Positions 3,731-14,928 of a stretch of DNA of 18,653 nt are shown here, piece by piece (position 1 is the stretch's first letter; each line of letters begins with the position of its first letter). The notes beneath the pieces were generated by a model. It made no database searches and was not told the origin of the DNA. It was given only the letters and a program-made list of their open reading frames with translations. The translations under genes were made by a program, and so were the position numbers. This DNA is from Promethearchaeota archaeon (GTDB lineage Archaea; Asgardarchaeota; Lokiarchaeia; Sigyniarchaeales; SOKP01). The DNA is taken from the NCBI GenBank assembly GCA_048941015.1, contig JBHLNZ010000048.1, positions 1-18,653 on the forward strand. The letters are read 5' to 3'.

Positions 3731-3857
3731 GGCAAGATGGCGTAGCCCGGGAACGCACCAGAGTTATCGATTTAACGGTGAAACTGAAGATCTGGGTATC
3801 GGGGGTTCAAAAAGCTAATTATAGTGCATTTAGCTTGAATATATCCCCCTCTTGCCA
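3731..3857 (+). tRNA. tRNA-Phe(GAA) with two introns (about 3762-3782 at position 30/31; about 3812-3843 in the T-loop)
   Basis: Removing both inserts gives a 74-nt cloverleaf: acceptor GGCAAGA/TCTTGCC+A, D-stem GCGT/ACGC, anticodon stem CCAGA/TCTGG with loop CT-GAA-GA (anticodon 3786-3788), T-arm GGGGG-TTCAAAT-CCCCC. CCA is not encoded. Confidence 0.9.
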
Positions 3858-7307: not shown

Positions 7308-7379
7308 TGCGTCGCCCGGGAATCGAACCCGGGTCACCGGCTTGGAAGGCCGGAATCATAACCCCTAGACTAGCGACGC
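7308..7379 (-). tRNA. tRNA-Gly(TCC), intronless
   Basis: Acceptor GCGTCGC/GCGACGC+A, anticodon arm CCGGC-CT-TCC-AA-GCCGG, T-arm CCGGG-TTCGATT-CCCGG; CCA not encoded. Confidence 0.97.
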
Positions 7380-12938: not shown

Positions 12939-13190
12939 GTGTCAAATAATTATCCTAAATATGATAAATATTCAAAATTTGAACAGAAAAAAAAACCAAG
13001 CCTATATGAAAGGATTGGGAATTTCTTCCAGAATACAAAAAGAATAATAAAAGTAGCAAATAAACCAGGAAGAAAAGATTATTTTTTAGTGTTTAAAATA
13101 TGTGCAATAGGGATTGTACTTCTAGGAGTTGTTTCCTATGTTATCCAACTAATTTTTACGATTGTTTTTGAAGCCCTAAATATTGGATAG
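12939..13190 (+). CDS. secE: Protein translocase subunit SecE/Sec61-gamma
   Basis: RIIKVANKP...KICAIGIVLLGVVSYVI; single C-terminal TM helix; follows ftsY. Confidence 0.92.
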   Translation: MSNNYPKYDKYSKFEQKKKPSLYERIGNFFQNTKRIIKVANKPGRKDYFLVFKICAIGIVLLGVVSYVIQLIFTIVFEALNIG

Positions 13191-13241: not shown

Positions 13242-13664
13242 ATGAAAGTAACATTAAATTATAGAGAAAATCTTCATTTTAAAGCTTCAGCAAGAAAATT
13301 CAAAAATATTGATGTGGATGAACCTAAATCATTTCATGGTAATGATTTAGGAGCCAGTCCCATTGAGTATTTTTTAATAGGGATTGGTGCTTGTATAGGA
13401 AATACATTTATTTATTGCCTTAAGAAGAAAAATATAGATCTAAAAGACTTAGAAATAATTGTAGATGGGCAATTGAAACATATGCAACCCCATATGAATC
13501 TAAGATTAACTAATATTAATATTGAATTTAAATTCAAAGAAGATTTAGATATTTCTGATGAGATTTTTAGATATTGTAGATCAAATCTTGAAAAATTTTG
13601 TCCAATATTTCAACCCATTTTAAAAGGAATTCCAATTGAAGTTAAATTTGTAAATTTTAAATAA
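13242..13664 (+). CDS. OsmC/Ohr-like family protein
   Basis: DEPKSFHGNDLGASPIEY...GAC and C-terminal FCPI (the two conserved Cys). Confidence 0.88.
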   Translation: MKVTLNYRENLHFKASARKFKNIDVDEPKSFHGNDLGASPIEYFLIGIGACIGNTFIYCLKKKNIDLKDLEIIVDGQLKHMQPHMNLRLTNINIEFKFKEDLDISDEIFRYCRSNLEKFCPIFQPILKGIPIEVKFVNFK

Positions 13665-13702: not shown

Positions 13703-14928
13703 TTAGAAATAAAAAAGATTTAGCTGCATTGGAATCGATAAGTCTTCTTCTTTATTTTTACAAGCAACAAATTTTATTTTCATTTTTAGGAGAAGCGTAA
13801 GAAGTCTTTTTGTTAAAATTCCATCAATTATTAAAAATTGAGTTTCTTTATGTTCTCGAATTTTGTCATAAAGTTCACCAACTTGAAATTCAAATAGTTG
13901 TTTAAGATTCTTATCAAATCCAATACTATACCCAGGTTCGATATTTTTAATTGCATCGATAATAATCGTTTGATTTTTTAACTTTAATTTTTTAAAAATC
14001 CTCTGGAGATTTGGATCTAAAGATTGTTTACTTTCTTTTGCAAAAGTTTCGATATCTAATTCCTTCATTAAATGTGCTGGTTTCTTATTCTGGAGTGATT
14101 TGATTAATTGTTTTCTTGTTAGTTCCTCAACTTCATACCCTTCAGGAGCACGTGCTACATAATCTAATTTTAATAACTGAATTAATTCATTTAAAATTAT
14201 TGTTCCTCCTCTGTCTCCGTCTAAGAAAGCAGTAACACTATTTTTAGTTTTACTTAAATCAATTATTGATTTGGGTACTTGAGTTCCCTGTACTGCGATT
14301 GCATTTTTTACACCTATTCTAAGAAGATTTAAAACATCCGCTCTTCCTTCAACGATAATTAAATCAGGATCAGATTCAACTTCTGGTCCTGCTGGAAGTT
14401 CTTCTGGCCCCCACGATGTAATTTCACTAAGTTTAATATCAGTTTCAATTTGTTCTTCTATTTCACTTGGTTCTAAAGACTTTTGGTCCCATTCCTTTAA
14501 TAATTCAGTTGCTCTTTCAATTATTTTTTGTCTTTTTGTTTCTCGAACATCACGAATTTCAATTAATTTGACTTCTGCTTCACATGGACCTACTCGAGAA
14601 ACTGTTTCTACAGTTGCCGCCAATAATGCAGTTTCTTTACGGGTAAGGCTAGAGGGTATTTTAATTATACCTTCAGAAATTCCTTCTTTTGACTCATTTT
14701 CAACCTCTATTCGCCCTATCCGCCCTGATTTTTGAAGATCTCGTAGATCGAGATCTAATAAGAGACCTTCAGTTTAGCCGATTAAGCCGATATGGCCTTT
14801 TCATATTATCTTTGGCCGAATATGGCGCCAACTATATCCGATTTTTCAACAACACCTTTTATTTTAAATTTTGTTTCAATAATATATTTAGTTGTAAAAT
14901 CAGTTTGATTATTTGTAATCTTGATCAC
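13703..14928 (-). CDS. dnaG: Archaeal DnaG (exosome-associated TOPRIM protein), split gene: exon 1 14928-14812, exon 2 14773-13703; about 395 aa after joining
   Basis: Exon 1 (GTG 14928) reads MIKITNNQTDFTTKYIIETKFKIKGVVEKSDIVGAIFGQ. Exon 2 reads TEGLLLDLDLRDLQKSGRIGRIEV... and continues in frame into the tracked ORF 13703-14623 with IVEGRADV and DGDRGG TOPRIM motifs. The two parts are in different frames, separated by 38 nt. Confidence 0.93.
14774..14811 (-). other. Candidate 38-nt BHB/BHL-type pre-mRNA intron in dnaG
   Basis: Insert AGATAATATGAAAAGGCCATATCGGCTTAATCGGCTAA. Central helix GGCC/GGCU with AAA after each strand and inner helix GAU/AUC. AA|A cuts join CAA to ACT in frame. Confidence 0.8.

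Follow-up and report, generated by a model that had tools for sequence, protein, structure and literature searches.

The window analyzed here, meaning the whole 18,653-nt stretch of contig JBHLNZ010000048.1 from a Promethearchaeota archaeon (Lokiarchaeia; GenBank assembly GCA_048941015.1), carries on its minus strand a dnaG gene that is split between two reading frames. The first is an open reading frame (ORF) of 40 codons that begins with a GTG at 14928 and ends ...VVEKSDIVGAIFGQR-stop; its first 39 codons make up exon 1 (14812..14928), which closes with GCC ATA TTC GGC CAA (GAIFGQ). The second frame, starting TEGLLLDLDLRDLQKSGRIGRIEV..., opens 38 bases beyond the end of exon 1 and contains the Toprim domain, and it corresponds to exon 2 (13703..14773; TEGLL..., 356 codons and a stop). 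When the NCBIfam DnaG profile NF003108 was aligned, columns 1-26 fell on exon 1 and columns 27-278 on exon 2 (3.1e-109), with no gap between them. The 38 nt lying between the exons (14774..14811) start AGA TAA, which supplies an in-frame stop, and end ATCGGCTAA. By translation, excision of these 38 nt gives a 395-amino acid ORF with the junction ...GAIFGQ|TEGLL, excision of 14783-14811 (29 nt) gives 41 amino acids ending ...GQIG-stop, and the message without splicing gives 40 amino acids ending ...GQR-stop. It is the 38-nt excision that restores an uninterrupted, conserved product; at this junction, relatives that lack the intron have CAR|ACN. The genome contains one copy of dnaG, one EndA gene with both the N-terminal and catalytic domains present (C37), and one gene for the RtcB ligase (C58). 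On sequence grounds, the 38-nt insert is an intron of the bulge-helix-bulge (BHB) type, with its cleavage predicted.

The intron closes with two adjacent 9-mers, a proximal copy, ATCGGCTTA (14783..14791, read from 14791 to 14783), and a distal copy, ATCGGCTAA (14774..14782, read from 14782 to 14774), which repeat with a period of 9 and agree in 8 of their 9 bases. Exon 1 itself ends TTCGGCCAA (14820-14812), and a repeat search placed all three 9-mers, the two from the intron and the one from the exon end, in a single family. In addition, exon GCCATATTCGGC (14826-14815) is echoed within the intron by GCCATAT-CGGC (14796-14786). A first-pass annotation made from this DNA alone had described the tandem repeat, its relation to the exon end, and the echo, and every one of these sequence statements was correct when read on the minus strand; its further statements, that removal of only 29 nt leaves an in-frame stop and that only the distal copy is productive, agree with the translations given above. 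The motif ATCGGCTWA occurs twice in the window, both times in the intron, against a chance expectation of 0.25, and the full intron motif occurs once in the 3.59-Mb genome. A dispersed or mobile element was considered as the source of the repeat and rejected, the motif being unique in the genome and no Rfam family being found at the locus.

In the proposed mechanism, the 38-nt intron would be cut from the dnaG mRNA by the tRNA-splicing endonuclease EndA, and the exons would be rejoined by RtcB. The productive fold would pair exon GGCC (14814..14817; the Gly codon GGC and the C of CAA) with GGCU of the distal 9-mer (14779-14776) to give a 4-bp central helix, H, for which pairing is seen in 24 of 24 aligned sequences. 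Intron GAU (14808..14810) would pair with the distal AUC (14782-14780) to give the inner helix, B, with 97.2% of cells paired. An AAA bulge would follow each strand of the central helix, on the 5′ side at 14811..14813 and on the 3′ side starting with the last two bases of the distal 9-mer. Cuts would then fall after CAA, between 14812 and 14811, as BHB geometry and the exact profile junction indicate, and after UAA, between 14774 and 14773; both lie two bases into an AAA, an exact match to the junction demanded by the protein. The 5′ bulge sits between helix H and the 3-bp inner helix, as the strict hBHBh′ form asks. On the 3′ side, GAA of exon 2 (14768..14770) can pair with UUC of exon 1 (14820-14818) as a short outer helix, and AAA plus two non-pairing bases precede it, so that the 3′ bulge would be AAACU, a relaxed 5-nt version resembling the HBh′ or bulge-helix-loop (BHL) form. 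The UUC/GAA helix was paired in 100% of cells, though both of its sides are codon-constrained, and its extension AUWUUY/GARGGU in 89.6%. Across intron types, the central helix shows compensatory changes: GGYC/GGCU, GGRC/GUCU, GGGC/GCCU, and GGAC/GUUY.

To place this intron among its relatives, dnaG loci were taken from 40 related genomes and a species-level genome collection, and the exon 1/exon 2 junction was parsed in 105 of them. Fifty-five distinct sequences had no intron and read CAR|ACN, and 32 had an insert at exactly the codon boundary of the window. Inserts of the window's type numbered 24, with lengths of 34-43 nt, and two metagenome-contig variants (L112 and L236) brought the set to 26. 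Both TCGGC copies are kept in all 26 of these distinct introns (Promethearchaeota, Lokiarchaeia), and the spacing between the copies is always 8 or 9 nt. The same layout is common to all 26: a start of (A/U)GNUNN, an A-rich linker that varies in length and sequence, (N)GCC, a 5-nt loop ending UC, GGC(N), a spacer of 1-3 nt, and finally WTCGGCTAA. For the distal 9-mer, 24 of the 26 variants have ATCGGCTAA; the other two, L042 and L043, have TTCGGCTAA, and in each of these the proximal and distal 9-mers are identical to each other. TCGGCTAA is invariant. An in-frame stop within the first two or three intron codons was present in 25 of the 26 (as AGA-TAA, AGG-TAA, TGA, AGA-TGA, AGA-TAG, or AGA-TTA-TAA), so unspliced dnaG mRNA ends about 40 amino acids in. 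The sole exception, L236, starts AGACAA, and read-through of its unspliced message gives a 59-amino acid product. In Logan assembly SRR30758843 (locus L111), which is independent of the one studied here, the intron was identical base for base and the exon-2 protein was 98% identical. Thus the relatives do not lack the second copy, nor is the repeat an assembly stutter, either of which the first-pass annotation had named as telling against its proposals. By this comparison, the tandem repeat is real, old, and under constraint.

Codon usage in the flanking exons also differed with the presence of the intron. Within the genus, the wobble position of the exon Gly codon was C or T (GGY) in 27 of 27 rows with the window's intron type, compared with 15 of 53 intronless rows; the Gly codon of exon 2 was GGT in 25/27 compared with 17/53, and the exon Ala codon was GCC in 16/27 compared with 5/53. 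These counts suggest that RNA structure constrains codon choice in the intron-bearing genes. The exon Ala GCC was also weighed as a partner of the proximal copy, but such a helix would have to run parallel to the central helix, and the pairing was rejected.

The proximal copy divides into three parts. Its AUC (14791-14789) ends the loop AUAUC (14793-14789), its GGCU (14788-14785) can form the 3′ arm of an intron-internal hairpin whose 5′ arm is GGCC (14794..14797), and its UA (14784-14783) forms the spacer; it is at the same time a potential decoy 3′ motif. In the relatives, the proximal GGC always stands opposite an upstream GCC across a 5-nt loop, the GCC/GGC core being kept in 24 of 24 sequences, and two variants (L021 and L112) show a C-to-U change in the core with a wobble pair kept. 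The outermost base of the 5′ arm covaries with the base after the proximal GGC. This closing pair is A-U in 12 of the 26 variants, U-A in 4, G-U in 3, C-G in 1, and mismatched in 6; U before GCC is always accompanied by A after GGC (4/4), and L236 has the C-G closing pair and a fifth pair as well. Ten of the 26 have an A or G as the base after the proximal GGC, so its complementarity to the exon G is not kept. Since this base follows its hairpin partner and not the exon, the proximal copy is read as the 3′ arm of a conserved hairpin, and the covariation with an intron-internal partner accounts for the loss of the fourth pair of the proximal central helix in the same number of variants (10/26). 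When scored over the 24-sequence alignment, the distal fold with the internal hairpin kept 97.9% of pair cells, compared with at most 53% when partners were slid.

A second recognition motif, by comparison, was not conserved across the relatives. The third inner-helix pair of the proximal fold is present in 8 of 24 sequences and absent in 16, and a full mimic of the distal site (a 4-bp central helix with at least three inner pairs) was found only in L001, L031, and L112, which form the window's own small clade. It arose there by a change of the loop from AUUUC to AUAUC. More generally, the first three loop bases vary, and the UC before the proximal GGC is invariant (26/26 and 25/26, respectively).

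These patterns can be put together as follows. The proximal GGC(N) and the upstream (N)GCC would form a hairpin of 3-5 bp with a 5-nt loop, whose 3′ arm lies 0-2 nt from the AUC that makes up the 3′ strand of the inner helix, and the look-alike motif would thereby be locked away. The hairpin may stack on the 3-bp inner helix, taking the place of the arm that is a continuous stem of 7-10 bp in older forms of the intron. During transcription, this local hairpin would be expected to form before the distal copy arrives. We therefore propose, from comparative evidence and with somewhat more confidence than doubt, that the proximal copy is a hairpin arm and a masked decoy, not a working second acceptor. 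The alignments indicate that, in a derived form of the dnaG intron, the tandem motif has been conserved as a structural element.

Folding energies were calculated for both conformers. It had been claimed that either copy can supply AUC-GGCU plus an unpaired triplet and that the proximal copy has an inner helix at least as good as the distal one, and both hold in the window's genome, where the proximal inner helix is GAUA/UAUC (4 bp) and the distal one GAU/AUC (3 bp). When folding was constrained, the distal fold was favored by a mean of 1.9 kcal/mol over 24 sequences and by 1.1 kcal/mol in the window. In 8 of the 24 sequences, the sign was reversed and the proximal fold was favored instead, so the comparison of conformers that the first-pass annotation had called for is not decisive. 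Thermodynamics alone cannot choose between the folds. RNAalifold, run on the same problem, gave three local hairpins instead of a BHB.

The alternative that survives best is the one originally suggested for this intron, namely that the competing folds act as a switch. Here, the distal copy would direct the productive 38-nt excision, the proximal copy would direct a 29-nt excision giving GQIG-stop, and the balance between the two would tune DnaG output. For the window's proximal copy, a 4-bp central helix identical to that of the distal copy is available along with the 4-bp inner helix, and its fold is only the stated 1.1 kcal/mol worse. The best argument for a switch is that the core UC-GGC is kept in 25 of 26 variants, though neighboring loop bases vary. 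The exon Ala codon fits as well: it is GCY, and thus able to pair with the distal GGC that would then be free, in 24 of the 27 intron-bearing rows, and its enrichment as GCC was noted above. An mRNA intron in cbf5 has, moreover, been proposed as a negative regulator (PMC2738675). What is conserved, however, is the UC-GGC core and not a full second acceptor, given that the full mimic is limited to the window's own clade, that the base after the proximal GGC follows its hairpin partner, that the fourth pair is lost in 10/26, and that only 8/24 have the third inner pair; after the proximal site there is also no outer helix and no defined 3-nt bulge.

Products of the switch were sought in protein and metagenome collections. 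None of 25 exon-1 peptides in the protein collection ended in GQIG, which is weak evidence against a switch because a minor isoform would rarely be assembled. Most of these 25 proteins were unspliced forms running into the intron (GQR-stop, with variants GQRL and GQRESHIG). One, P0142, reads on as GQTEG..., but it comes from an intronless, apparently chimeric contig, and one further match was a truncated fragment. A metagenome scan with a degenerate junction pattern that allowed a remnant of 0-12 nt gave no ATCGGCTAA remnant at a junction among the matches listed; these were intronless dnaG genes from all archaea and chance matches, and the scan was uninformative. Altogether, an on/off switch seems rather unlikely. 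We are equally doubtful that the proximal UC-GGC serves as a built-in decoy, with the internal hairpin deciding which copy is used and EndA splicing becoming a regulated step that yields either a productive or a dead-end message. If true, structure-gated alternative splicing of mRNA would exist in an archaeon close to the ancestor of eukaryotes, and use of the decoy would represent the first case of alternative splicing by the EndA/RtcB machinery.

It is distinctly unlikely that a small duplication left the proximal copy behind as a neutral relic without a present role. Tandem duplications of short segments are a common event, and here the unit measures only 8-9 nt. A relic would not be expected to hold GCC, the loop UC, and GGC fixed across 26 variants with host proteins up to ~30% different, nor to do so next to a linker that varies freely in sequence and length, and its closing pair would not be expected to change by compensatory substitutions.

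The history of the intron was examined with a tree of the exon 2 proteins (94 rows and 261 columns, rooted on other families), which is a tree of one protein only. Lowest on this tree are introns of 29-32 nt at the same codon boundary that fold as a plain hairpin, followed by a 31-nt sister form whose AGATAA start and AATCG..TAA end match those of the window's type but which is likewise a plain hairpin. Above these lies a clade with the repeat-bearing type dispersed among genes that lack the intron. A plain 29-nt intron is also found at the same boundary in L025, which belongs to another family. The plain forms fold as a BHB with one continuous stem-loop of 7-10 bp and have no repeat. At least nine intron changes are needed on the best tree, three of them required by well-supported branches; no intronless gene retains a remnant, all reading CAR|ACN (loci L002-L110). 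Judged from these sequences, the intron has been lost precisely and repeatedly. The simplest history would begin with an old intron at this site, whose 3′ half was remodeled into GCC-loop-GGC plus spacer, followed by many precise losses. The tandem copy probably came from a local duplication inside the pre-existing intron and has been kept since.

The same tree bears on the earlier suggestion that the intron was born de novo as a BHB intron, by tandem duplication of the self-complementary GGCC exon segment GCCATATTCGGCCAA. In favor of this, the proximal module resembles the exon over 11-12 nt, and GCCAT(A/T)TCGGC of the intron resembles exon GCCATWTTYGGC both in the window and at the consensus level. 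The module resembles the distal 9-mer too. The likeness of the exon to the distal copy (UUC-GGCC-AAA and AUC-GGCU-AAA), however, needs no duplication, because a BHB is two-fold symmetric around the self-complementary GGCC helix and its strands must read alike; intron types with a non-palindromic helix show no such exon/intron echo. Repeat-free introns occupy the identical boundary in the relatives that diverge first, below the repeat-bearing type on the tree, and again in another family; the sister lineage has the same intron ends but a plain hairpin. The exon-like module was confined to the derived type, and no consistent covariation of the exon Ile/Phe codons with the intron loop was seen across species. 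Birth by exon duplication is contradicted by these deeper plain introns, and we see little likelihood in it.

Removal in two steps is more improbable still. The proximal site would be used first (29 nt), and the remaining 9 nt would follow from a minimal BHL of GGCC-AAAUC-GGCU plus AAA. By sequence logic only, both cut sites would flank the same 4-bp helix again after the first excision. Broad-specificity endonucleases do cleave BHL substrates (PMC12397907), but two steps would add nothing over direct excision. To our knowledge, no documented archaeal intron is as short as a 9-nt intron with a 5-nt loop. Finally, a sequencing artefact or assembly stutter has next to no chance of explaining the repeat, since the identical intron occurs in an independent assembly and both copies occur in 25 other variants from separate genomes, by which this reading is already refuted.

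Several observations weigh against the proposal that the proximal copy is a hairpin arm that masks a decoy within an otherwise productive BHB intron. The minimum-energy structure obtained without constraints is neither of the BHB folds (ensemble −16.2 compared with −10.8 kcal/mol), free folding of the 91-nt region gave no BHB and no unusual stability (z = −0.28), and the energy differences between the folds are small. The 3′ bulge is non-canonical, at 5 nt if UUC/GAA forms as predicted. The closing pair of the hairpin is mismatched in 6 of 26 variants, and the invariance of the loop UC is unexplained by the hairpin alone. Since UC-GGC is complementary to the 5′ strand GYC-AAA-GA, nearly every variant could physically adopt a 5-bp competing fold. 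Spliced full-length proteins of the window's lineage and of the L017 lineage were not found, the nearest full-length matches being too distant to assign. Phylogenetically independent contrasts between wobble base and intron presence number only three on well-supported branches, too few for a test, and the key nodes of the single 261-column protein tree have moderate Shimodaira-Hasegawa-like approximate likelihood ratio test (SH-aLRT) support of 83-92.

Among the closest known counterparts is the BHB intron in the pre-mRNA of cbf5 in Crenarchaeota (Desulfurococcales and Sulfolobales), which was proposed to reduce expression (Yokobori et al. 2009, PMC2738675). Like the dnaG intron, it is a short endonuclease-type intron in the coding sequence of a conserved single-copy gene, is ancestral to its clade, and has been repeatedly lost (PMC2738675). 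The dnaG intron differs in its host gene, in its phylum (Asgard), and in a second copy of the 3′ motif that is predicted to fold as an internal hairpin; no conserved second copy was described for cbf5 in the cbf5 text searched. In the literature searched, cbf5 was the only documented case of an endonuclease-type intron in an archaeal coding sequence (PMC2738675), and the Asgard dnaG intron is of interest in itself for that reason.

Comparison can also be made with archaeal tRNA introns, for which cleavage of relaxed BHB and BHL substrates by broad-specificity EndA has been described (PMC12397907, PMC5829648), and with Asgard archaea in particular, for which there is a tRNA intron census (bioRxiv 10.64898/2026.10.13.758758) and in most genomes of which EndA paralogues are reported (2026 preprint). 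The dnaG intron resembles the relaxed tRNA introns in its 4-bp central helix, its flanking unpaired triplets, and its one non-canonical side, as well as in predicted cuts two bases into each bulge and in a genome that encodes EndA and RtcB. It differs from them in residing in an mRNA, in that the exon side of its helix consists of codons (Gly GGY and the C of Gln CAA), and in an inner arm that would be split into a 3-bp helix and a separate hairpin. With the plain-hairpin dnaG introns of neighboring Lokiarchaeia lineages (29-32 nt; loci L096, L098, L100, L101, L103, L104, L107, and L025), it shares the GQ|TE boundary, the logic of a central helix with a covarying exon wobble, and the ...TAA end. 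Those introns have a single continuous stem-loop of 7-10 bp and no tandem copy, whereas in the window's type the 3′ half of the stem is replaced by GCC-loop-GGC and spacer. By analogy only, the arrangement recalls the tandem acceptors and decoy sites of NAGNAG type in spliceosomal introns, where two look-alike 3′ sites are adjacent, one is non-productive, and RNA structure can mask one. Unlike spliceosomal decoys, the dnaG site would be handled by a protein endonuclease and a ligase, with recognition by structure, and its second site is only a putative acceptor.

A few further features of the locus and its surroundings were recorded. The window has a G+C content of ~28%. Exon 2 contains a perfect inverted repeat of 8 bp, AGATCTCG-ATCTA-CGAGATCT, at 14736-14756 on the minus strand; it falls in the LDLDLRDL codons, 17 nt beyond the 3′ splice site. 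An OsmC-family gene (13242-13664, plus strand) and a small SecE-like gene (12939-13190, plus strand) adjoin dnaG, and both neighbors recur in the closest metagenome contigs. On the 905-nt contig L235 (ENA ERZ3603970), an intronless dnaG breaks off after 64 codons, with an unrelated ORF following it, so this contig is probably chimeric or rearranged. Elsewhere in the window, a tRNA-Phe with two non-canonical introns had been noted earlier at 3731-3857; it was not reported by ARAGORN or by Rfam at the gathering score, which report only a tRNA-Gly at 7308-7379, and the tRNA-Phe, if real, escapes standard scans.

In terms of intron anatomy, the proposed structure would add a new detail, in that, in one long-lived form of the intron, the usual single stem is replaced by a very short inner helix and a separate hairpin, for which the duplicated 3′ motif supplies the material. 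The dnaG intron, having three short elements and two cut sites that are possible, may provide a mutable model for site choice on an mRNA by an EndA of broad specificity. The comparison of intron-bearing and intronless genes further suggests that a coding sequence is constrained by the intron it carries, as the codons for Gly, Ala, and Gly differ at the wobble position between the two.

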